A DNA stretch of 64,000 bases, from assembly GCF_003334305.1 (NCBI RefSeq), contig NZ_QOWS01000007.1. One strand, given 5' to 3'. Position 1 is the stretch's first letter, and each line of letters begins with the position of its first letter. This DNA is from Escherichia coli. Lineage in GTDB: Bacteria > Pseudomonadota > Gammaproteobacteria > Enterobacterales > Enterobacteriaceae. The notes under the pieces were generated by a model, which saw only the letters and a list, made by a program, of their open reading frames with translations, had not been told where the DNA came from and searched no databases. The position numbers and the translations under genes were made by a program. Shown here piece after piece: positions 1 through 16,232 of this stretch.

Positions 1-82
1 GCAGTTCGTTGGCTTTAGCCAGCACCTCTTTTACATCCTTAAACTGATATACATTGCCGAACAATGTGGTCTTTAGTTTCAT
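1..82 (-). CDS. eutB: Ethanolamine ammonia-lyase large subunit EutB, N-terminal 27 codons only (gene runs off the window start)
   Basis: Reverse complement of 1..82 translates MKLKTTLFGNVYQFKDVKEVLAKANEL, matching the EutB N-terminus; start codon 12 bp downstream of the eutA stop. Confidence 0.8.
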   Translation of the reverse strand, partial: MKLKTTLFGNVYQFKDVKEVLAKANEL

Positions 83-93
83 AAGTCGTTCCC

Positions 94-1497
94 TCAGGAA
101 GGAAATGCGAGTGATTTCACCGTCACCGGCACAACCGATCCGCCAAAAAGAGGCGTACCAATGTCGATATAGTCCCCCGCGCGGACAATCACTTCGTCAA
201 TGACTGCCAACGGGAGTTGTTGTAGCTGTGGGCGCAACAACATGCCCAGAGCTTTACCAAAGTCCTGCCCGGCCACCACCAGCAGGGGATGCGGATTCGG
301 AAAACGCGCGACGAAATCGACCAGCGCGTTGATGACCGTCAGTACCGCGGCGTAACGCACAGGCAGCGAGGCGGGAAGCGCCAGCACGTACGCGTCAGTT
401 TTGGGATCAAGATCCAGCTGAAGCAGCGCCTGTTGCCAGGCACTCACCAGATCCGTTTCATCAATCGGGATCGCCACCGGCAAATTGCGCAGCGGCAGTT
501 GTACGCCCTCCAGCCAGATTGTGCTGCCAGAGAGCGAAAGGGTATGTGCACCCGCGCCAATCACCGTGGCGCGTACGGTTTGCGCCGGAAACTGCACATT
601 CATCTCACGCAGGCGCGGATGGTCATGCAGCGCCGTTGCCAGAAGTGGGCCAATATCGGCAAAACAGAACGGGTCGGCGGGCTGGTGGCGATAACATTCG
701 CCCACGCCTCCAGAAAGCGTAATGATTTCGGGCGTAACACCTGCGGGCAGCAAACCGGTTTGCATCAATGCCTGCGCGAGCGGCGAAAGCGTTCCGTCAA
801 TCACTTCGACAATCAGCGCCGCCATCCGCCGGGTAACCTGCACCAGCTGCGCGCCGGTCAGCGAACGGGCGTCAGTGCCTGCACCGAAGCACTCATCCAC
901 AATCATCTGCCCCGGTTTATGAGCGTAAACCACGCGCCCCTGGCTGTCGGTTTCCAGCAGGCGACCACCGACGTTGAGACAGGCAGTGCCGCTGATTTTT
1001 CCGGCATCGAACAGGGCGTAGTTCGCGGTGCCACCGCCGATGTCGATATTCAGTACCCGACACAGCCGTTGTTCAGAAAGGGTTTGCGCCCCAGCTCCGT
1101 GACCGGCGATCACGGATTCGAGGTGCGGCCCGGCGCTGGCAACGACAAAATCCCCCAGCGATTGAGAGAGCGCCATCACCGCCGGGCGAGCATTGCGGGT
1201 TTTCGCGCTTTCACCGGTGATGATGATGGCACCAGAATCAACGCTTTCCGGCGCAATACCCGCAGCCTGATATTGCTCGAGTATTAAGGTTTTCAGTTCC
1301 GCTTCTTTTAAACCGCCCTGTTTATCGACAGGGGTAAAGAACACCGGACTTTGCCAGCTAATTTCGCGTTTAATGAATTCGTAGCGCGGCACCTGCGACA
1401 CCGCCGCACGGTTAACCAGCTCCAGGTGGGAGAAAATCACCTGGGTGGTGGTGGTGCCGATATCGATACCGACGCTCAATAGCTGGCGAGTGTTCAC
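94..1497 (-). CDS. eutA: Ethanolamine ammonia-lyase reactivating factor EutA
   Basis: 467-aa ORF, recognised EutA sequence; position in eut operon. Confidence 0.92.
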   Translation of the reverse strand: MNTRQLLSVGIDIGTTTTQVIFSHLELVNRAAVSQVPRYEFIKREISWQSPVFFTPVDKQGGLKEAELKTLILEQYQAAGIAPESVDSGAIIITGESAKTRNARPAVMALSQSLGDFVVASAGPHLESVIAGHGAGAQTLSEQRLCRVLNIDIGGGTANYALFDAGKISGTACLNVGGRLLETDSQGRVVYAHKPGQMIVDECFGAGTDARSLTGAQLVQVTRRMAALIVEVIDGTLSPLAQALMQTGLLPAGVTPEIITLSGGVGECYRHQPADPFCFADIGPLLATALHDHPRLREMNVQFPAQTVRATVIGAGAHTLSLSGSTIWLEGVQLPLRNLPVAIPIDETDLVSAWQQALLQLDLDPKTDAYVLALPASLPVRYAAVLTVINALVDFVARFPNPHPLLVVAGQDFGKALGMLLRPQLQQLPLAVIDEVIVRAGDYIDIGTPLFGGSVVPVTVKSLAFPS

Positions 1498-2720
1498 GAT
1501 TGTGCCTCCGCTTCGGTTTTAGTCGCGGTCGCGTCTTCTTTTGGCACCAGCATCATCGCCACGCCAATCGCCGTTACGCCGCCGATCAACTTGCCGACAA
1601 TCATCGGGAAGATCATGGCGTTCATGTTGGCAGCGGCGAAGCCTAAGTGGTCGCCCAGGGCGAAAGCAGCGGAAACGGCGAAGGCGCAGTTGATGACTTT
1701 GCCGCGGGTATCCATCTGCTTCATCATGCCGAACATCGGGATGTTGTTGGCAAGCGTTGCCACCATGCCGGCTGCCGCGATGTTGTTCATATTCAGTACT
1801 TTACCGACGCTCATCAGCGGTTTTTCAAACCAGCGAGTCAGCAGCAGCACCATTGGATACGCCCCTAACAGCACGCAGGAGATAGAACCGATAACTTCAA
1901 TGGCGCGCATCACTTCACCGGGTTTATCGCCAGGGGCCATAAAGATAGGATCCAGACCGGGGATCAGTTCCCAGCCAAGCAGGAATTTCACTACCGCAGC
2001 GGCAAGACCGAGGGTGATCAATGCAACGAGGAATTTGGCGAAGATCTGGAAGCCGTTGATCATTTTTTCCGGGATGAATTTCAGCCCCAGCGCCACCAGA
2101 ATCGCAACAATGATCACCGGGATCATGTTCATCAGGATCAGGGCGAAAGTGAATTCCACCGGCTGACCGTTGATCTGCACACCGGAGTACATAGCAACCA
2201 GACCACCAGCAATACAGCCAATCGGAATGGTCACAATGCCCGCCAGCACGCCGAGCGCCAGATAACGACGATCAGAAGGTTCGATAATGCCGAGCGCCAC
2301 CGGAATGGAAAACACAATCGTTGGCCCCATCATCGACCCGAGAATTAACCCAGAGTATAGCCACGCTGCTACGTCGCCGCCCGCCAGCTCTTTGGCGAGG
2401 AAGAAGCCGCCCATATCGCACGCCAGCAGCGTTCCGGCGAACATTGACGGGTTTGCGCCGAGCATTTCGTAAACCGGGATAATTACCGGCCCGAGTACGT
2501 GAGCCAGTACCGGTGCCAGCGCGGTCATACCGACCATCGCCAGACCCAGAGCGCCCATTGCCATAAAGCCTTCTTCGAACTGACCGCCAGATCCTTCGAT
2601 ACTTTTACCGAACTTACCGAGGAAACGAGCAGAACCGCCGAACTGCGACAGGATCCTGTCTACGGCAGCTATCAGCATAAAGAACATCATGATGTACATG
2701 ATGATTTCGTTAATTCCCAT
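1494..2720 (-). CDS. eutH: Ethanolamine permease EutH
   Basis: 408-aa highly hydrophobic ORF, recognised EutH; 4-bp overlap with eutA. Confidence 0.92.
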   Translation of the reverse strand: MGINEIIMYIMMFFMLIAAVDRILSQFGGSARFLGKFGKSIEGSGGQFEEGFMAMGALGLAMVGMTALAPVLAHVLGPVIIPVYEMLGANPSMFAGTLLACDMGGFFLAKELAGGDVAAWLYSGLILGSMMGPTIVFSIPVALGIIEPSDRRYLALGVLAGIVTIPIGCIAGGLVAMYSGVQINGQPVEFTFALILMNMIPVIIVAILVALGLKFIPEKMINGFQIFAKFLVALITLGLAAAVVKFLLGWELIPGLDPIFMAPGDKPGEVMRAIEVIGSISCVLLGAYPMVLLLTRWFEKPLMSVGKVLNMNNIAAAGMVATLANNIPMFGMMKQMDTRGKVINCAFAVSAAFALGDHLGFAAANMNAMIFPMIVGKLIGGVTAIGVAMMLVPKEDATATKTEAEAQS

Positions 2721-2749
2721 CGCCTTTACTCCCTGTTAGTTGTTATTTA

Positions 2750-2836
<87 letters not shown>

Positions 2837-4024
2837 TTATTGCGCCGCTGCGTACAAGCCGACAATCTGCTCCAGGCTGGCGGTACGCGGGTTGCTGCGC
2901 AGACAAATATCTTCCTGCGCGGCCTGCGCCCATGCACCGTAATGCGCAGATGTCGCGCCAACATCGCCCAGTCGTTTACCAATCCCAACTTCCGCAATCA
3001 GCTCACTTACCGCGTTAATAGCGTCATGATCGTCGGATTTTTTAGTTCGCAGTGCCCGACCAATCTGACTAAAGCGTTCACGACAAACCATCCGGTTAAA
3101 TTCCATCACTGTTGGCAGCAACATGGCGTTCGCCAGACCGTGCGGAATATGCAGCGCCGCGCCCGGCTGATGCGCCATCGCGTGGCACAACCCAAGACCC
3201 GCACTGGAAAACGCCATTCCCGCCATACATGAAGCCAGCAACATGCTCTCGCGCGCGGCAAGGTCGTGACCGTAGCCCACCGCTTTCGGCAGCGATTTGC
3301 CAATCATCGCAATGGCACCAATCGCCAGACTGTCGGTAAACGGTGTAGCGTTCAGGGCGCTGTATGCTTCAATGGCATGGGTTAACGCATCAATGCCGGT
3401 CATCGCCGTGACATGCGACGGCACACCTTCGGTCAATGCGGCGTCGAGGATCGCCACATCCGGCATCAGCGAGGCATGGGCTAACACCTGCTTGCGCCCG
3501 CTCACCGCGTCGATAATCACCGTTACATTGGTGGTTTCAGAGCCGGTTCCGGCGGTAGTTGGAATGGCAATCAGCGGCAAGCGCGGTTGCAGAACGCTGG
3601 TTTCTGACATCTCTGCCAGCGTGCTATCCGGGTTCGTCACCAGCAACGCCACGGCTTTCGCCGCATCCAGCACCGAGCCGCCGCCAAATGCGATCACCCC
3701 GTCACAACCTGACTCACGCAACTGCGCCACGGCTGCACACACGTCGGTAATGCACGGTTCGCCCACCGGACATAGCCAGAGCGTCATGGCGATACCTTTA
3801 ACGGCCAGGCTACGCGTCAGCCCGGCGGTCATCCCTGCCTGATGCAAAAAGCTGTCTGCCATCACGAACAGATGTTTCAGCCCACGCGTTTGCGCTTGCT
3901 GTCCGCAACTGCTCACCGAGCCCGGACCGCAAAGCGTCACCGGTGGAACGCTAAATGTTTTTACCCGTTGCAGATTCAGGGTATCGAACGCCTGAAAGAG
4001 CGCGGTCTGCAATTCATTTTGCAT
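2837..4024 (-). CDS. eutG: Ethanolamine utilisation alcohol dehydrogenase EutG (iron-containing ADH family)
   Basis: Track ORF is 404 aa; start chosen at internal MQNELQTALFQ (395 aa), which overlaps the eutJ stop in typical operon fashion. Confidence 0.88.
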   Translation of the reverse strand: MQNELQTALFQAFDTLNLQRVKTFSVPPVTLCGPGSVSSCGQQAQTRGLKHLFVMADSFLHQAGMTAGLTRSLAVKGIAMTLWLCPVGEPCITDVCAAVAQLRESGCDGVIAFGGGSVLDAAKAVALLVTNPDSTLAEMSETSVLQPRLPLIAIPTTAGTGSETTNVTVIIDAVSGRKQVLAHASLMPDVAILDAALTEGVPSHVTAMTGIDALTHAIEAYSALNATPFTDSLAIGAIAMIGKSLPKAVGYGHDLAARESMLLASCMAGMAFSSAGLGLCHAMAHQPGAALHIPHGLANAMLLPTVMEFNRMVCRERFSQIGRALRTKKSDDHDAINAVSELIAEVGIGKRLGDVGATSAHYGAWAQAAQEDICLRSNPRTASLEQIVGLYAAAQ

Positions 4025-4850
4025 ATAGCCCCTCCGCTTTCTCTCGCCCACTACTGGCGATCGCCAGCGGGGTCATAAACAAACTGTGCTGCGGTAAATG
4101 CACCTGTAACGCCGGGAATTGTTTGCGAAACAGTTCCGCCACGCCCGGTTGCATACAAGAGCCGCCCGCCAGCCATAAATCAGTAATGCCCTGCCCTTCA
4201 ATATGCCGGGCGACAATGTCCGCCATTTTTTCGTACACCGGTTTCACCGCGGGCCAAATCTCGTCACCATGACCGCGCTTGTACTGCTCTGCCTCTTCCA
4301 GCGAAATACGACGATTTCCGGCGAGAGTCAGAGAGATGTGATGTCCGCCGGTGGCTTCATCCGCCGAGTACGTCACCTTGCCCTTTTTCACGATGGCAAT
4401 GCCGGTAGTGCCGCCGCCGATATCCACTACACCGGCGTTGTCCAGTTGCAGCAGATCCGCGACTGCGGTTGGCTCATCCAGCACATGGCTCACTTCCAGC
4501 CCGGCAGATTCCAGCACGTTGATGGAAATACGCGGGTCCGTACCTGGAGGAAATGAAGTCGCCGCATGGCTAAAACGAAGACCGAATTGCTGCTCAAGAG
4601 TGTCGAGATGGCGACGAACAATGGTGACCGCACCGAAGAAATCCCAGACGATGCCGTCGCGGACCACATCGGCCCAGTCGAGGCATACCGCCACCGGCTG
4701 ACCGTCGCGGTCAACAACCATCGACACCACATCGCAGGTGCCCAGATCCACCCCCAGCCACAGCGGAGATTCCGTCGCGGCAGGCGTCTGGTTACACAGC
4801 GTTGCCGCCGTTTGCAGACGTGGGGTGAGCCATTGTTCGTCGTGCGCCAT
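4014..4850 (-). CDS. eutJ: Ethanolamine utilisation chaperone-like protein EutJ (actin/Hsp70 fold)
   Basis: 278-aa ORF, recognised EutJ. Confidence 0.9.
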   Translation of the reverse strand: MAHDEQWLTPRLQTAATLCNQTPAATESPLWLGVDLGTCDVVSMVVDRDGQPVAVCLDWADVVRDGIVWDFFGAVTIVRRHLDTLEQQFGLRFSHAATSFPPGTDPRISINVLESAGLEVSHVLDEPTAVADLLQLDNAGVVDIGGGTTGIAIVKKGKVTYSADEATGGHHISLTLAGNRRISLEEAEQYKRGHGDEIWPAVKPVYEKMADIVARHIEGQGITDLWLAGGSCMQPGVAELFRKQFPALQVHLPQHSLFMTPLAIASSGREKAEGLYAK

Positions 4851-4860
4851 CGGTTACTCC

Positions 4861-6264
4861 TTAAACAATGCGAAACGCATCGACTAATACACAGCGACGC
4901 AGACGGACAAACGTCCGCGCGCTGGTTACCCCTTCACCGGTTGGCGTGGTGATGGTCATGGTGGTCCAGCCTTCCCCGCCCAGCCCCAGCCCGGCAATGC
5001 ACGGTCCGTTCTTAACGAAAATGCTGGTATCAATGGCGTTCGCCATCTGGTTCATGTTTTCGATATTGCGCGAGTGCATTGCCGCCGTGTGGTGGCAACC
5101 GCCCTCCAGTTTCACCGCCAGCGCAATGGCATCCGCCACGTTGGCGACGCGCACGACGGGCAGCACCGGCATCATCAGTTCGGTCACGGCAAACGGATGT
5201 TCTGCAGTGGTTTCCACAAACAGCAAACGCGTTTCTTGCGGCACGTTCAGGCCGATTGCCGCCGCGATTTTCGCCGCATCGCGACCAACCCAGTCACGGC
5301 TGACGGTGCCTTTTCCGCGCTCGTCGATATTTTTCAGCAACACCGGTTGCAGCTGCTGCGCCTGTTCTGCGGTCAGTTTCACCGCGTGCTGGCCTTCCAT
5401 CAGACGCATCAGTTCATCGGCTACGCTATCAACAACAATCAGTACCTTTTCGTCGGCACAAATGATGTTGTTATCGAAAGAAGCGCCTTTGACGATGGAC
5501 TGAGCGGCACGGGCGAGGTCGGCGGTTTCATCCACCACTACCGGCGGGTTGCCAGCGCCTGCGGCAATCAGACGTTTATTGGTGTGTTTACGCGCCGCTT
5601 CTACTACCGCTTCGCCGCCGGTTACCACCAGCAGGCCGATACCCGGAAACTTGAACAAGCGTTGCGCGGTTTCGATATCCGGATTTGCCACAGTAACCAG
5701 TAAGTTTTCCGGCCCACCTGCGGCAACAATCGCCTGGTTGAGCAGCGTAATCGCCCGCTGGGAGACTTTTTTCGCCGCCGGATGCGGGGCAAAAATGACG
5801 CTGTTGCCCGCGGCAATCAGGCTGATGGCGTTATTAATTACGGTTGCCGCCGGGTTAGTGGACGGAGTTACCGAAGCCACCACGCCCCAGGGTGCGTTTT
5901 CAATTAGGGTCAGGCCGTTGTCGCCAGTCAGCACTTGCGGAGAGAGGCACTCAACGCCTGGTGTGCCGCGCGCCTGAGCGACGTTTTTTGCAAATTTATC
6001 TTCAACGCGCCCCATGCCGGTTTCACTGACGGCAAGTTCCGCTAAATCTCTGGCGTGTTTTTCGCCTGCTTCACGAATGGCAGCAATGGCTAACTGGCGC
6101 ATTGCCACGCTTTTTAACCCTTGCTGGGCGACTTTGGCTGCCGCAACGGCGTCATCCAGGGACGCGAAAACGCCCATCTCATGAACGGCGGCGGACGGCG
6201 TGTCACTGCTTTGCATTTTCAGCAGTACCGCTTTCACCACCTGTTCAATATCCTGTTGATTCAT
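4861..6264 (-). CDS. eutE: Acetaldehyde dehydrogenase (acetylating) EutE
   Basis: 467-aa ORF, aldehyde dehydrogenase family, recognised EutE. Confidence 0.92.
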   Translation of the reverse strand: MNQQDIEQVVKAVLLKMQSSDTPSAAVHEMGVFASLDDAVAAAKVAQQGLKSVAMRQLAIAAIREAGEKHARDLAELAVSETGMGRVEDKFAKNVAQARGTPGVECLSPQVLTGDNGLTLIENAPWGVVASVTPSTNPAATVINNAISLIAAGNSVIFAPHPAAKKVSQRAITLLNQAIVAAGGPENLLVTVANPDIETAQRLFKFPGIGLLVVTGGEAVVEAARKHTNKRLIAAGAGNPPVVVDETADLARAAQSIVKGASFDNNIICADEKVLIVVDSVADELMRLMEGQHAVKLTAEQAQQLQPVLLKNIDERGKGTVSRDWVGRDAAKIAAAIGLNVPQETRLLFVETTAEHPFAVTELMMPVLPVVRVANVADAIALAVKLEGGCHHTAAMHSRNIENMNQMANAIDTSIFVKNGPCIAGLGLGGEGWTTMTITTPTGEGVTSARTFVRLRRCVLVDAFRIV

Positions 6265-6275
6265 GATGTTCTGCC

Positions 6276-6563
6276 TTATTTGTGGAAAATTACCTGACCG
6301 CCAGACACCACCTCATCGACAATGCCAATCACGCACAGATCGACCGGTGACGTTTCGCTTTTATGCGCCTGGCGGGCGGAACTGCCACTCACCAGTAACA
6401 CCCACTCCCCGGTTCCCGCGCCAATATTGTCGATGGCGACGGCGCATTGCCCGTCAGGATTACCTTGTGGATCAATCATTTCCACCATCAGCAATTTGTC
6501 ATGCGCCAGTCCGTGATGGCGTACGGTACAAACAATTTGTCCAGTGACGACTGCCAGTTTCAT
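6276..6563 (-). CDS. eutN: Microcompartment vertex (pentamer) protein EutN
   Basis: 95-aa ORF, recognised EutN. Confidence 0.9.
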   Translation of the reverse strand: MKLAVVTGQIVCTVRHHGLAHDKLLMVEMIDPQGNPDGQCAVAIDNIGAGTGEWVLLVSGSSARQAHKSETSPVDLCVIGIVDEVVSGGQVIFHK

Positions 6564-6669
6564 ACCCGCCTCCGTGGCGTATTTCAGGTAAAAGCTCCCC
6601 CTACCCTCCGCAGAAGGTAAAATGAAAAAGGAGAGAGCGTGACGCCCGAATCGACGTCACACAGGGTGA

Positions 6670-6963
6670 TTACAGGTTGCTGCTATCGCCTTTCAGGCCG
6701 ATCGGGAAGACTTCTTCCAGGTCGCCGTGCGGACGCGGGATAACGTGTACAGATACCAGCTCGCCGATACGCTGTGCCGCTGCGGCACCTGCATCGGTCG
6801 CGGCTTTACAGGCTGCAACATCACCACGAACCATGGCAGTACACAGGCCGCCGCCAATCTGCTTAACACCAACCAGCTTGACGCGCGCAGCTTTCACCAT
6901 CGCGTCAGAAGCCTCAATCAGTGCAACCAGGCCCCGGGTTTCGATCATTCCTAATGCTTCCAT
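6670..6963 (-). CDS. eutM: Microcompartment shell protein EutM (BMC domain)
   Basis: Track ORF is 111 aa; start chosen at [22 protein letters not shown] (97 aa), canonical BMC-domain N-terminus. Confidence 0.9.
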
Positions 6964-7001
6964 TGTGCTTTCCTCTTTATCAGGGTCCAGAACGGGACCG
7001 T

Positions 7002-8018
7002 TCATTCAACCAGTGTTTGTAAACTGCTTTCGCGGTTCACTTCTGTCTGACGCGGCACAGCTGCCACCAGCGCCAGCTCGATAATTTCCTGCACGCTACA
7101 ACCACGAGAGAGATCGTGCATCGGCGCGGCAAGTCCTTGTATCAGTGGCCCGACGGCACGATATCCGCCGAGTCGTTGTGCGATTTTGTAACCAATATTT
7201 CCGGCTTCCAGCGACGGAAAAACCATCACATTGGCCTTGCCCTGTAGCGGGCTGGCAGGCGCTTTTTGCGCCGCCACTTCCGGCACGAAGGCGGCGTCAA
7301 ACTGTAACTCGCCATCCACCACCAGCTTTGGTGCGCGCTCACGGACGATTTCTGTCGCCTGCTGGACGTTAGCAACACAGGGGTGACGGGCGCTACCATT
7401 GCTGGAAAACGACAGCATCGCCACGCGCGGCTCTTCTCCGGTGATGGCGCGCCAGGTTTCGGCACTGGCAAGCGCGATATCCGCCAGCTGCGCCGCCGTC
7501 GGCTGTGGCACCACGCTGCAATCGGCAAAGCCCAACGCCGGGCCGCTGTACTGTGGCAACATCAGGAAAATGGAAGAGAGCGTTTTACAGCCTGGCTGCA
7601 AGCCGATAATGCGTAATCCGGCACGCAGCACATTTGCCGTGGAAGAGAGGTTGCCCGCGATACAGACATCCGCTTTACCGGCGCTGACCATTGCTGCGGC
7701 GAACATCAGAGGGTCGGTAAGTTTTTCCAGCGCATCCGGCGGCGTTTTTTCGCCCGCGCGGGCCAGCCAGCGATGAGCAAATTCTTCCCGCATTGCGAGG
7801 TTGCCATGCGGATCAATCACCTGTAGCCCGTCCATCGCCACGCCGTGACTGAGCGCAAACTGACGAAGTTCAAACGGATTGGCGACCAGAATGGGCGTTG
7901 CCAGACCTTGTTGATGTAAATATTGCGCGGCTTTCAGCACACGTTGGTCTAACGCATCCGGAAAAACCACTCTGGCGGGCGCTCGCAACGCCAGTTCACG
8001 ACAACGTTCAATAATCAT
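7002..8018 (-). CDS. eutD: Phosphotransacetylase EutD
   Basis: 338-aa ORF, recognised EutD. Confidence 0.92.
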
Positions 8019-8818
8019 TGCGTTTCCCCCAGTCGTTGTTGGATCTGCTTCACCGTTAGCGGCTGCTTCGTTACGCTCAGGATCATCATCACGTAGACCG
8101 TGCTGGAAAGGCGGTTCAGCGCCTGCAAAATGTCCGGGCGTAATACTTCAAAGCTGCGGGTGATAAACACCTGCGCCGCTACGGTTTCGGTTTCCCGCAC
8201 TTTGGTACGTAGCAGATTGAGCAACGCCGCATCGCGCCCGTGGCTGGCTTCCGGCACCAGATGATCGTGGTCGAGATAGCGCAGCGGCTGGTGAGAAAGT
8301 CGATGCAGATCTTCGTCAGAAAGCCCGACAATCGCCTGGCAGCCCAGCGGTTCACCCAGCGCATCGGCGCGCATAATGTTGCCAAGACGCGAACGGATAT
8401 CCGCCAGCCACGGCTGCCACGGTTCCGCCAGTTCAATTTGCAGCCACACTGCCAGCGCAATGGTGCTGTCGAGAACCGCGCGAAAACCCAGACGCGGATC
8501 GCTTTTGGCGACCATTTTTTCCGCCGACAGGTGAGTCAGCGTATCCGGCTTTTTTGCCACCGGCTGGCGGCACAGTTCGCAGCACGCCTGCGGATGTTCA
8601 TCGCTACTGGTCAGCCCATGAACGGGCTGCGGCTGCTGCTGTTCATCGTCAACAAACAGGCGGCCCTGCTCGTCAATAAACTTGATGCGCAGATGGCGGC
8701 TTTCCAGTAACTCCCGGGCAGAGGGCGTCAGGCGACTGTCCGCAGGGAGATGGATCTCTGCGCCTTCGCTGAGCGTATGGTTCGCTCTTAGCCATGCTTC
8801 GGTGATGAAATCTTTCAT
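8015..8818 (-). CDS. eutT: Cobalamin adenosyltransferase EutT
   Basis: 267-aa ORF, recognised EutT; 4-bp overlaps with flanking genes. Confidence 0.9.
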
Positions 8819-9516
8819 AGGGATTGCCAGTTAGCCGGCCAGGCGACATACAGGAATTTCACGCTGGATGTCGTACCAAATTCGATACTGGAGCCTTTCG
8901 GGATAAACATCACGTCACCCGCTTTGGCGATCATGGTTTCGCCTTCGTGGCGAACATGCAGCTCCCCTTCCAGCACCATGTCGATTTCGTCGTAGTTCAG
9001 GGTCCACGGGAAGAATGCGTTCTCCCACTGCATAAAACCAGCGGCCATGCTGCTGCCGTCGTCTCCGGTCACAAGATCAGTCAAGCCCACGCAATGCGGC
9101 TCTGCGCCGTCGAAACGACCAAACTTGACGCTGCTGCCATCAATCACTTTGATGCCGCCTTTGCCGGTCACCGATTTGAAGCTCGGCTGCATTGCGCCCT
9201 GCTCCAGCGACTGTTTTTCCTTCATCACTTTTTCCATCAGCTGTGCGACCAGGCTTTCGGTAAACTGGCCTTCCGGCAGCTGGGCAATGATGGTTTCGCG
9301 GATGCGCTGGCTTTCGGTTTTGTCGGCTGGCACGCTGGCGGGCACGGACGCCGTTACCGGGATCGATTCATCACATTCGGTGATGGTAAAACCCAGTAGA
9401 TCCGCCACTTCACGGGCTTCCGGGGTAATAATGCTGGCGCGCAGAACCACGGACATTGCCTGTTCGCCGCGCGCGTGTGCTTCACGAATATCATTCGCTG
9501 TGATGAGTTTTTTCAC
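8815..9516 (-). CDS. eutQ: Ethanolamine utilisation protein EutQ (cupin, acetate kinase activity)
   Basis: 233-aa ORF, recognised EutQ. Confidence 0.9.
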   Translation of the reverse strand: MKKLITANDIREAHARGEQAMSVVLRASIITPEAREVADLLGFTITECDESIPVTASVPASVPADKTESQRIRETIIAQLPEGQFTESLVAQLMEKVMKEKQSLEQGAMQPSFKSVTGKGGIKVIDGSSVKFGRFDGAEPHCVGLTDLVTGDDGSSMAAGFMQWENAFFPWTLNYDEIDMVLEGELHVRHEGETMIAKAGDVMFIPKGSSIEFGTTSSVKFLYVAWPANWQSL

Positions 9517-9970
9517 CTGCTTCCTCCTGTTTGGTGAGAGATGCCAGATAATCCACCAGTTGCTGCACGCTTTGCGGGTCGTGGCTGTTTAGCTCGAAAA
9601 TCGGCTCTTCGAAACCCGTCTCAAGCAATAACTTTCGCGTTGCGGCGACGTCAGCATCTGGCATGTCCGTTTTACTGATGACGGCGATTTGCCGTTTGCT
9701 GACGCCAATATCCAGCAACCCGGCAGGCAACCGACTTTCCGGGTCATTTGCGCCATGGACATAGATCAGCATGTCTACATCCTGTAGCGTGGTAATTAAG
9801 GCGTGATACCAGCGGGGATGGCTAAAATATTCACCCGGCGTATCAATATCGCCCTTATCATTAAATTCCACGGCCTGTGTTTTTCTGGCGAGGGTATAAT
9901 TCCCCTGCAACGCATTAAATAACGTTGTTTTTCCTGCCCCGACGGTACCCACAAACGCAATTCGTTTCAT
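9491..9970 (-). CDS. eutP: Ethanolamine utilisation protein EutP (P-loop NTPase)
   Basis: 159-aa ORF with Walker A GTVGAGKTT, recognised EutP. Confidence 0.9.
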   Translation of the reverse strand: MKRIAFVGTVGAGKTTLFNALQGNYTLARKTQAVEFNDKGDIDTPGEYFSHPRWYHALITTLQDVDMLIYVHGANDPESRLPAGLLDIGVSKRQIAVISKTDMPDADVAATRKLLLETGFEEPIFELNSHDPQSVQQLVDYLASLTKQEEAGEKTHHSE

Positions 9971-9982
9971 GAATGCCTCGTA

Positions 9983-10318
9983 TTAACTTTTGGTCATTTC
10001 ACAAAGCGTATAATTTAATAAGCGACCTAAACCGCTGACGGTTTGTGATAACGCTTCTTCTACTGCGCCCACCGAGCCATAAATCACCAATGCACCGCTG
10101 AAGCGGTCGAGAAAACCGATATGCACATCAGCGGCTTTCAGCGCTAAATCACCGGCGATCATCGCCGTTTCGCCGGGAGTTAGCGTCATAATGCCAATTG
10201 CGCCCGCATCCGGAACGCCGATTTTCTTCGCCAGTTCCTCACCGGGATGCGCGATGAGATGCGCCAGTGTGACCTGTTTGCCGGGCACAAATTCCTGAAT
10301 GATGCGTTCTTTATCCAT
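9983..10318 (-). CDS. eutS: Microcompartment shell protein EutS
   Basis: Track ORF is 135 aa; start chosen at [15 protein letters not shown] (111 aa). Confidence 0.87.
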
Positions 10319-10567
10319 GAGTCGCCGCCTGTGAAAAACTTTCGTGTATCGTGACAATTTTTCGTCAGAGTAAATAACAAAATTCGGCAAGCGCGTTTAA
10401 AAGGTGAGGTAGATCACTAAGAATGGAGAGATATTCGCTGTGGTGCATAAACTTTCATATGCAACGCATGAATATAAATAAAATAATATCGAGATATTAT
10501 ATAGACTGCTTTTTTTATTATTCGCAAACTCAGTAATAAGCTTTACTAATATATTGCAGCCAAACCG

Positions 10568-10591
10568 CTTACCCTGAATATTCAGGGTAAG
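10568..10591 (-). terminator. Perfect 24-bp hairpin just downstream of maeB stop; possible maeB terminator, no strong U-tract
   Basis: cttaccctgaatattcagggtaag is a perfect inverted repeat 20 bp past the maeB stop. Confidence 0.3.
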
Positions 10592-10610
10592 CGTGAGAGT
10601 TAAAAAAGAA

Positions 10611-12890
10611 TTACAGCGGTTGGGTTTGCGCTTCAACCACGGCCAGCGCCACCATGTTGACGATACGACGCACCGATGCGATCGGCGTTAACACGTGAAC
10701 CGGTTTCGCCACGCCCATCAGCACCGGACCGACAGTCACACCTTCCGAGCTGGAAACGCGCAGTAAGTTGTAACTAATGCGGGCAGCTTCCATGTTCGGC
10801 ATCACCAGAATATTGGCAGAACCTTTCAAAGGGCTGTCCGGCATACGGTCGTTGCGAATCGCTTCCACCAGCGCTGCATCGCCGTGCATTTCACCATCAA
10901 TCATCAGATCTGGCGCACGATCCCTGACCAGTTCCAGCGCCTGACGCATTTTGCTCGACGACGGGCAGTCAGAAGAACCAAAGTTGGAGTGCGACAACAG
11001 AGCAACGCGCGGCTCAATACCAAAACGACGGACAGTTTCTGCCGCCATCAAGGTGATCTCCGCCAGCTCTTCTGCGTCTGGTTCGTCATTGACGTAGGTA
11101 TCGGCAATAAAGGTGTTACCACTCGGCAGCAGCAGCGCGTTCATTGCACCTGCGGTGTGAACGCCATCGCGATAACCAAAGACATTTTTCACCACGCTAA
11201 AATGTTCATGATAATCGCCCACCGTACCGCAGATCATTGCATCGGCTTCCCCACGCTGAACCATGATCGCGCCGATCACTGTCGGGTTACTGATCAGCGC
11301 CCGCTGCGCCTGTTCCTGAGTGACACCGCGACGCTTCATGATCTGGAAGTATTCGGTCCAGTACTCTTTAAAGCGCGGATCGGATTCGTTATTGACGATC
11401 TCAAAATCAACGCCCGCTTTGATCTGCAAGCCCAGTTTCTGAATGCGCATTTCGATCACGTTCGGACGACCGATAAGGATCGGTTTCGCCAGTCCCAGCG
11501 TTACCAGTTCCTGAGTGGCATGCAGAACGCGCGCCTCTTCCCCTTCTGGCAGAACAACGCGCTTCGGCGCTTTGCGAGCCTGGGAGAAAATCGGCTTCAT
11601 AAACAGGTTGGTTTTGTAAACGAACTCAGTCAGCTTGTCGATGTAGACGTCGAAATCAGCAATCGGACGCGTCGCCACGCCCGACTCCATCGCGGCTTTA
11701 GCGACCGCAGGAGCGATCTTAACGATCAAGCGCGGATCAAACGGTTTTGGAATGATGTATTCCGGACCAAAGCTCAGATCCTGATCGCCATACGCTGAAG
11801 CCACCACTTCGCTCTGTTCGGCGTGGGCCAGTTCCGCAATCGCGCGTACCGCCGCCAGTTTCATCTCTTCATTGATAGCCGTTGCGCCAACATCCAGCGC
11901 GCCACGGAAGATAAACGGGAAGCAAAGGACGTTGTTGACCTGGTTTGGATAGTCAGAACGACCGGTGCAAATGATGGCATCCGGACGCACTTCTTTCGCC
12001 AGCGGCGGCAGAATTTCCGGTTCCGGGTTCGCCAGCGCCAGGATCATTGGCGCACGAGCCATTTTCTTCACCATTTCCTGGGTCAGCACTTTCGGGCCGG
12101 AACATCCAAGGAAAATATCCGCGCCTTCAATCACATCATCGAGGGTACGTTTGCCGTCATCCACCACCGCATATGCGGCTTTGGTTTCCGCCATGTTTGG
12201 CTCACGGCCCTGATAGATAACGCCTTTTGAATCGCAAACCACGATGTTATGTTTTTGCAGACCCAGCGCTACCAGCAGGTTCATACAGGCGATTGCTGCG
12301 GCACCCGCGCCGGAAACCACCATCCGCACGTCGGAGATGTTTTTCTCCACCACGCGCAAGCCGTTGAGGATGGCGGCAGTGCTGATGATTGCCGTGCCGT
12401 GCTGATCGTCGTGGAATACCGGAATATTCATCCGCTCGCGCAGTTTCTGTTCAATATAGAAACATTCTGGCGCTTTAATGTCTTCGAGGTTGATTCCGCC
12501 GAAGGTCGGTTCGAGCGCAGCGACAACTTCAATAAATTTGTCCGGGTCGAGTTCATCAACTTCAATGTCAAATACATCAATCCCGGCGAATTTCTTAAAC
12601 AGAACGCCCTTGCCTTCCATCACCGGTTTGCCAGCCAGCGCGCCAATGTTGCCTAACCCCAGCACCGCCGTACCGTTAGAGATCACCGCCACCAGGTTAC
12701 CGCGCGCGGTATATTTGTAGGCTTTTAACGGGTCTTTTTCGATTTCAAGACAAGGTGCGGCAACGCCTGGTGAGTAGGCCAGCGCCAGATCGCGCTGCGT
12801 TGCCAGAGGCTTGGTTGGAGAAACCTGGATTTTCCCTGGAACTGGAAATTCATGGAAATCAAGTGCACTTTGTTTTAACTGGTCATCCAT
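10611..12890 (-). CDS. maeB: NADP-dependent malic enzyme MaeB
   Basis: 759-aa ORF with malic enzyme domain plus C-terminal PTA-like domain, recognised MaeB. Confidence 0.95.
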
Positions 12891-16152: not shown

Positions 16153-16157
16153 TGGTG

Positions 16158-16232
16158 ATCGCCGGATGCTGATTGCCGGATGCGACGCTGACGCGTCTTA
16201 TCCGGCCTACAGCGTCTTATCCGGCCTACATG
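16158..16232. repeat. REP/BIME cluster between convergent tktB and ypfG
   Basis: Repeated gccggatg / cttatccggcctaca units. Confidence 0.6.

Follow-up and report, generated by a model that had tools for sequence, protein, structure and literature searches.

Conserved hairpins between eutM and eutN in the Escherichia coli ethanolamine utilisation operon and their proposed REP-like role

The gap between the shell protein genes eutM and eutN of Escherichia coli holds a structured RNA module of the polycistronic eut mRNA, and on balance we think that this module most likely acts in the way intercistronic REPs do. As we picture it, the module comprises a conserved hairpin just past the eutM stop codon, a second hairpin present in the Escherichia/Citrobacter lineage, an A/U-rich linker and the eutN ribosome-binding site. 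An upstream RNA species that contains eutD-eutM and is more abundant would have its 3’ boundary at the hairpins, so that the eutM message would exceed that of eutN and the downstream genes. The element is unannotated and was not described before at this site, and the kind of mechanism that we propose is ordinary operon fine-tuning.

The window that we analysed, a stretch of 64,000 nucleotides, carries the eut operon of 17 genes on its minus strand, and positions 6564-6669 are exactly the 106-nt eutM-eutN spacer, which corresponds to MG1655 2572041-2572146. The spacings along the operon are 12, -26, -4, -4, 38, 106, 11, 10, -11, 216, -4, 11, 20, 9, 12 and 45 nt. The original prediction had called the eutM-eutN gap unusually long, and this is correct: it ranks second in length of the 16 junctions, although it is not unique, since the eutG-eutH gap, which contains REPs, is longer (216 nt). 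The features of the region, in the order in which they are transcribed, are as follows:

6670-6963, minus strand: eutM
6670-6672, minus strand: eutM stop codon UAA; hairpin 1 follows after 7 nt if the extended stem is counted, after 9 nt if only the core stem is
6637-6662, minus strand: hairpin 1, GUGUGACGUC[GAUUCG]GGCGUCACGC, 10 bp, ΔG -16.2 kcal/mol
6620-6636, minus strand: pyrimidine-rich tract UCUCUCCUUUUUCAUUU, which is the 5’ arm of hairpin 2 and doubles as a weak U-tract-like tail of hairpin 1
about 6594-6635, minus strand: hairpin 2, with outer helix CUCUCC/GGGGAG and inner hairpin UACCUUC[UGCG]GAGGGUA
6580-6593, minus strand: A/U-rich linker UUUUACCUGAAAUA, predicted to be single-stranded (unpaired in the MFE structure)
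6561-6573, minus strand: eutN start region, with the SD GGAGG at 6569-6573, a 5-nt spacer and the AUG at 6561-6563; CGGAGG is invariant
6276-6563, minus strand: eutN

In the mRNA sense the gap, up to and with the eutN AUG, reads UCACCCU-GUGUGACGUC[GAUUCG]GGCGUCACGC-UCUCUCCUUUUUCAUUU-UACCUUC[UGCG]GAGGGUA-GGGGGAG-CUUUUACCUGAAAUACGCCAC-GGAGG-CGGGU-AUG. The stem-loop that had been predicted in the gap, gtgacgcccgaatcgacgtcac, is located at 6639-6660 on the plus strand. In the mRNA sense it corresponds to the 8-bp core of hairpin 1, GUGACGUC[GAUUCG]GGCGUCAC, which includes one U-G pair. The prediction was thus right about this stem-loop, but it had read the sequence on the non-coding strand and had overlooked the second hairpin. 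The full 10-bp stem of hairpin 1 contains 6 G-C pairs and is only moderately stable (-16 kcal/mol); hairpin 2 has a ΔG of about -16.8 kcal/mol, with an inner stem of 7 bp and a UGCG loop. The gap as a whole folds at -43 kcal/mol (z = -3.17), a value equalled by 2 of 200 shuffles, and a compact hairpin as stable as hairpin 1 was found in 10 of 300 dinucleotide shuffles (3%). On single-sequence evidence, hairpin 1 is modestly unusual. Among the compact 30-nt hairpins in 10.4 kb of eut mRNA it ranks third in stability, and it is the sole strong non-REP hairpin that lies outside coding sequence. The most stable non-REP compact hairpin of this mRNA, GCGCGCGGACG...CGUCUGCGUCGC (-18.5 kcal/mol), lies in the 3’ coding end of eutE (4893-4922, minus strand), ~30-60 nt ahead of the eutE stop codon. 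GGA motifs, which might be read as CsrA sites, occur at the tip of hairpin 2 and in an ACGGA loop that covers the eutN SD, but they are inseparable from the SD itself.

The evidence from the single sequence is modest, and it is conservation and covariation across genera that make the stem-loop convincing. A scan with EutN, using one genome per species, gave 48 loci, and the eutM-eutN gap could be delimited in 43 of these. The gap is always long (52-211 nt) and strongly structured, in 43 of 43 loci. Hairpin 1 is present in 24 of the 43, spread over six genera, and in all 24 it begins 5-9 nt past the eutM stop codon; it is carried by Escherichia, by the Citrobacter freundii complex and the R56 group, and by Klebsiella spallanzanii, Buttiauxella, Yokenella and Entomohabitans. 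The core arms have the form (G/A)UGACG(U/C)C ... G(G/A)CGUCA(C/U), with GUGACG...CGUCAC in all carriers but Yokenella (AUGACG...CGUCAU). The stability of the orthologues ranges from -13 to -19 kcal/mol, and their loops, of 4-23 nt, differ in sequence. Seven pairs of the core are invariant and one covaries (CG:9, UG:6, UA:5). Hairpin 2 is confined to Escherichia, the C. freundii group, the R56 group and K. spallanzanii. RNAalifold recovered both hairpins from 16 gaps of Escherichia, Citrobacter and K. spallanzanii, and the consensus shows compensatory changes at three pairs of hairpin 2 (CG to GC, AU to GC and CG to UA). The linker UUUUACCUGAAAUA is invariant in Escherichia, Citrobacter and K. 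spallanzanii, and UACCUGAA is retained from it in Buttiauxella and Entomohabitans. Long, very strongly structured gaps of another kind separate eutM from eutN in distant eut operons, those of Pseudomonas nitroreducens (L042), Rhodocyclaceae (L045/L046) and Intestinirhabdus (L032); these span 78-211 nt, fold at -38 to -111 kcal/mol and are unrelated in sequence both to hairpin 1 and to the enterobacterial REPs.

In an alignment of 21 sequences, 90.8% of cells are paired, compared to 45-60% when the partner columns are slid, and 11 pairs show double-sided changes compared to 2 in each slid control, counts that overstate the number of independent events because the sequences are phylogenetically related and the Buttiauxella rows are badly aligned around hairpin 2. 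With indels counted, the E. coli gap shares 78-86% identity with that of Citrobacter or K. spallanzanii, compared to 56-66% at the four-fold degenerate sites of eutM and eutN in the same species pairs; unrelated REP-type gaps under the same scoring reach 51-59% aligned identity. The gap is more conserved than the flanking four-fold sites, and this noncoding sequence is thus under purifying selection.

A 451-nt query around the site matched 5,409 of 5,426 complete E. coli genomes, in which the genes are annotated as eutM and eutN. The 106-nt gap itself is present in 5,408 of the 5,426 and is covered to at least 80% in 5,407 (sensitive blastn); the 5,408 genomes with a match have it at a median of one place each (range 1-2), and the element is unannotated there. 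Full-text literature searches found no description of a eutM-eutN hairpin element. The Escherichia variants that we sampled affect the loops of the hairpins, gap position 6 (which precedes hairpin 1) and, in hairpin 2, the internal loop and two positions of the outer helix, where two E. coli strains have single mismatches; no substitution in the hairpin 1 stem was found among these E. coli and Escherichia variants. E. coli strain 90-1 (L053, NZ_CP050047.1) carries an IS911-family insertion in the linker (window 6592-6594, with a CTT target duplication), which cuts eutN and all downstream genes off from the operon promoter.

REPs and hairpin 1 are mutually exclusive in the eutM-eutN gap. REP/BIME sequences occupy it in 15 of the 43 loci, all without hairpin 1: in Salmonella enterica subsp. 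diarizonae and arizonae, in K. pneumoniae, K. oxytoca, K. michiganensis and K. grimontii, in C. koseri, C. amalonaticus and C. sedlakii, and in Pluralibacter and Pseudocitrobacter. Matches to Rfam naRNA4 lie inside the gaps of C. koseri, K. michiganensis and K. pneumoniae, and the REP consensus (of the GCCGGATG...CTTATCCGGCCTAC type) is absent from every hairpin-type gap. Rfam covariance models at E <= 1 gave no match in the gap of E. coli, C. werkmanii, Buttiauxella or K. spallanzanii. Elsewhere in the window, REPs were detected as sub-threshold naRNA4 matches at 2742-2860, in the eutG-eutH gap, and at 16154-16207. A covariance model of the E. coli-type element (R1) matched only the eutM-eutN gap when run over the window and 32 loci (227 kb), with weak matches in Buttiauxella and Entomohabitans and none in the REP-type loci. 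A REP or other repeated or mobile element was therefore rejected for the E. coli gap, by the lack of the consensus and by the single copy number, and a known RNA family was similarly rejected, as Rfam at E <= 1 gave only REP-derived naRNA4 matches elsewhere.

Because the more distant genera carry it, hairpin 1 is probably ancestral, and the REPs would then be later replacements. A bolder version of this reading, which we put forward tentatively and regard as less probable than its opposite, is that the junction holds an ancestral locus-specific stabiliser or attenuator RNA that was repeatedly and independently replaced by REP/BIME elements. The replacing lineages would be Salmonella, Klebsiella, the C. 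koseri/amalonaticus group and Pluralibacter/Pseudocitrobacter. The presence of REPs in the same gap could instead reflect a preference of REPs for insertion there and not functional equivalence. K. spallanzanii (L043) combines an E. coli-like hairpin-type gap with an E. coli-like EutM C-terminus (GDSSNL), whereas the other Klebsiella (L029-L031, L036) have REP-type gaps and an EutM ending in ...GDSNI, which suggests that this part of the operon has recombined or been exchanged horizontally.

Published expression data bear on what the gap does to the eut message. In AIEC LF82 the RPKM values in minimal medium/bile salts are 20/76 for eutS, 39/166 for eutP, 24/192 for eutQ, 13/83 for eutT, 108/357 for eutD, 55/177 for eutM, 5/62 for eutN, 14/149 for eutE, 13/147 for eutJ, 35/168 for eutG and 106/514 for eutH (PMC6379400, Table 1). 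From eutM to eutN the signal drops 11-fold uninduced and 2.9-fold with bile salts, in one table of values without coverage profiles (PMC6379400). The eutD-eutM segment stands above both of its neighbours (PMC6379400), a pattern that, in this one table, would be expected of an RNA species with its 3’ boundary at the hairpins. The profile along the operon is non-monotonic and climbs again at eutH and eutB (PMC6379400). Across the REP-filled eutG-eutH gap RPKM goes up (35/168 to 106/514), opposite to the step between eutM and eutN (PMC6379400). Uninduced eutD and eutM (108 and 55 RPKM) are also several-fold above eutT (13) (PMC6379400), the eutT-eutD boundary being at window ~8015-8020. Transcription may thus start internally, or a processed eutD-eutM species may be stable; our scan gave no promoter-like site upstream of eutD on the minus strand. 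Term-seq of MG1655 in LB and M63 glucose shows no sense-strand 3’ end in the gap, an absence that is uninformative because the operon is not induced in these media, and the Cappable-seq supplementary data hold no coordinates in the gap interval.

At the protein level the difference between the two shell proteins is far larger. In E. coli K-12 grown on ethanolamine with B12, the relative iBAQ values are 100 for EutQ, 96 for EutM, 39 for EutL, 37 for EutB, 27 for EutE, 24 for EutC, 11 for EutS, 10 for EutD, 8 for EutK and 1 for EutN (PMC11334477). EutM:EutN is thus ~96:1 as protein (PMC11334477) compared to 3-11:1 as mRNA (PMC6379400), and EutE, which is encoded downstream of eutN, reaches 27 times the EutN level (PMC11334477). 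Since the protein ratio far exceeds the mRNA ratio and EutE is 27-fold over EutN, the low level of EutN must be set mainly by translation. The protein data show no clean step, which counts against the REP-like reading: EutE, EutB and EutL, all downstream, are abundant, and EutD, upstream, is only at 10. The opening energy of the eutN start region, 13.1 kcal/mol, is the third highest among the 17 eut genes (eutM 4.5, eutE 4.6). Occlusion of the ribosome-binding site by the gap was rejected as a cause, because the native gap leaves the eutN start more accessible than shuffled gaps do, with a lower opening energy in nearly all loci. The proposal that the hairpin sets the relative amounts of the shell proteins could therefore explain no more than part of the protein ratio.

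The fall in mRNA across the gap (PMC6379400) is also what would be expected of a canonical partial intrinsic terminator, in which hairpin 1 and a U-rich tail release a fixed fraction of the polymerases and lower the transcription of eutN-eutR. Hairpin 1 is the top-ranked terminator-like site in 12 kb; however, terminator-like matches are not enriched in the region (17, compared to 14.6 +/- 4.9 expected from shuffles), and the tract at 6620-6636 fits a simple terminator pattern only marginally. The HUB model defines a terminator by a G+C-rich hairpin, a ~7-nt U-tract, a bubble-edge GC at -11/-10 and an RU dinucleotide at -2/-1. Hairpin 1 supplies the stable G+C-rich hairpin (10 bp, 6 G-C, -16.2 kcal/mol) and its extended stem ends in GC, the bubble-edge feature, but the UCUCUCC that directly follows the stem in E. 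coli has only 3 U in 7, a five-U run comes only past it, and the dinucleotide after the 7-nt tract is UU and not RU; the phasing of these dinucleotides is uncertain. On a TransTermHP-style tail score from our own script, E. coli scores -3.15, Yokenella -1.5 and B. noackiae -4.5, compared to an ideal of -7.15. Buttiauxella does have 6 U in 7 after the stem, whereas Yokenella has kept the stem without a U-tract, and the pyrimidine tract is equally explained as the 5’ arm of hairpin 2. That the stem is conserved and the U-tract is not speaks for the hairpin itself as the functional part, more than for canonical termination, and we consider a canonical terminator quite improbable. Another reading, which we hold to be unlikely but not negligible, is a translational insulator. 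Here the hairpin behind the eutM stop and the long spacer would keep ribosomes from sliding on and re-initiating, and would thereby uncouple eutN from the heavily translated eutM. The vertex pentamer EutN would then depend on a start site of its own that is poorly accessible, and would be made at ~1% of EutM. The excess of the protein ratio over the mRNA ratio, the high opening energy at eutN, the onset of the hairpin 5-9 nt past the stop codon in all hairpin-type loci and the fact that most other eut junctions overlap or span <=20 nt are all consistent with it. Against this, the hairpins do not occlude the ribosome-binding site, the native gap being more accessible than shuffled ones, and iBAQ is imprecise for a protein of 95 residues. 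Insulation is moreover compatible with a REP-like stabiliser and does not exclude it.

The original prediction had offered an internal promoter as another possibility, and this found no support. Scans of 6000-7300 and 1-12000 gave no sigma-70-like site in the gap on the eut strand, where -35/-10 hexamers at 16-18 nt spacing are absent from 6564-6669, and mRNA drops and does not rise across the gap (PMC6379400). The only eut-strand sigma-70-like match in 12 kb lies inside eutN (6475-6502, minus strand, ATGACA-16-AATGAT, 9 of 12), and matches such as this are no commoner than in shuffles. Three observations would speak for an antisense transcript or small ORF that begins in the gap. Published Term-seq places an RNA 3’ end of low score on the strand antisense to eutM, at MG1655 2572217 (Adams et al. 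2021, suppl. file 1), the equivalent of window 6740 on the plus strand; the plus strand also has a TAAAAT at 6618-6623 and a AAGGAGAGAGC-GTG that opens a 34-codon ORF at 6639-6743. An RNA antisense to the 3’ end of eutM (6680-6740, plus strand) might start in the gap, but the TAAAAT has no -35 partner and reads TAATGT or CATTGC in Citrobacter, where neither hexamer nor ORF is conserved. The frame and length of the antisense ORF shift between species (21-62 codons) because the loop lengths differ by non-multiples of 3, and the gap lengths (105, 106, 110, 114, 120 and 121 nt) likewise differ by other than multiples of 3. Small ORFs on either strand (19 codons from the stem GTG in the sense direction, 34 codons antisense) were rejected for their unconserved reading frames. 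Altogether, we regard a promoter, antisense transcript or ORF starting in the gap as extremely unlikely. A spacer without function is in our judgement very doubtful. On this reading the hairpin would be left over from, for example, an old terminator or a mobile-element scar, and REPs and ISs would land in the gap simply because insertions are tolerated there. The several takeovers by REPs, the IS911 copy in strain 90-1, the modest single-sequence significance and the outer-helix mismatches of hairpin 2 in two E. coli strains would all suit a relic. However, a relic would not account for a gap that is better conserved than the synonymous sites of its flanking genes, for pairs that covary while loops vary freely, for a hairpin position fixed across six genera, or for retention in 5,408 of 5,426 E. 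coli genomes. We also rejected a DNA palindrome serving as a site for a dimeric protein, including a CRP-like TGTGA...TCAC site, since its arms are 4 bp apart in some species and up to 23 bp in others, which makes a fixed dimer site unlikely.

Intercistronic stabilising hairpins are familiar from the Rhodobacter puf operon and from E. coli papBA, where segmental mRNA stability gives unequal amounts of protein from one operon, and malE-malF is an example of an intercistronic REP/BIME. For puf and papBA the processed species and their half-lives were measured, whereas for eutM-eutN we infer them. The eut operons of Firmicutes contain EutV/ANTAR dual-hairpin antiterminator sites; these overlap a terminator, and both of their hexaloops have A as the first and G as the fourth base. 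The E. coli gap similarly has two tandem hairpins in an intergenic region of an ethanolamine utilisation operon; however, its loops are GAUUCG and the tetraloop UGCG, and an ANTAR-type dual hairpin was rejected because these do not fit. The regulator of enterobacterial eut is EutR, and this operon has no gene for an ANTAR protein. The partial intrinsic terminators in ABC-transporter operons of cellulolytic Clostridia likewise place a hairpin and a pyrimidine- or U-rich stretch between much-needed and less-needed products (PMC9045158). Unlike these, the E. coli element has a poor U-tract (3 of 7 U) that is not conserved in orthologues.

REP325 in the yjdMN operon stabilises the upstream mRNA and attenuates the downstream gene (bioRxiv 10.64898/2026.03.23.713779). 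Like the REP/BIME at yjdM-yjdN, the eut element consists of stable stem-loops in a long intra-operon gap after a highly expressed cistron. In one published RPKM table the mRNA of the upstream gene also exceeds that of the downstream one (PMC6379400), and REPs fill the same gap in Salmonella, most Klebsiella and several Citrobacter. The E. coli element nevertheless lacks the REP consensus and any naRNA4/REP match, is single-copy and has a covariance model that hits one locus. Most likely, then, it works like a REP but is not one; this is the function that we propose from the comparison.

In the REP-like mechanism that we propose, the two hairpins would block 3’-to-5’ exonucleases after an endonucleolytic cut in the linker UUUUACCUGAAAUA, and would in this way protect the upstream RNA. 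The linker at 6580-6593 is a candidate endonuclease (RNase E-type) site and/or ribosome loading region. The hairpins may also stop a fraction of the RNA polymerases, through weak intrinsic or Rho-assisted attenuation, and the physiological consequence would be the excess of eutM message over that of eutN and the genes beyond it. The idea of an mRNA processing or stability element thus gains from the conservation of the hairpins, the purifying selection, the REPs in the same gap of related genera and the drop in RPKM from eutM to eutN in one dataset, while the function itself is one that we infer.

The mechanism belongs to a well known class, and the gain in understanding is therefore incremental; the wider interest lies in the repeated exchange of a dedicated hairpin module and REPs at one operon junction. 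Microcompartment shells need very unequal parts, with the facet hexamer EutM at ~100 times the vertex pentamer EutN, both encoded in one 17-gene operon. A conserved RNA structure at the EutM/EutN boundary offers a mutable handle for testing how this ratio is set, and may be of use in the design of synthetic Eut shell operons. The junction also provides a natural test of whether REPs can functionally substitute for dedicated intercistronic hairpins. Should an ancestral element indeed have been replaced repeatedly, the REP replacements would amount to natural swap experiments in which REPs were recruited as functional substitutes for such hairpins, and selection would be keeping a structured 3’ boundary behind the major shell gene, tuning the composition of the microcompartment.
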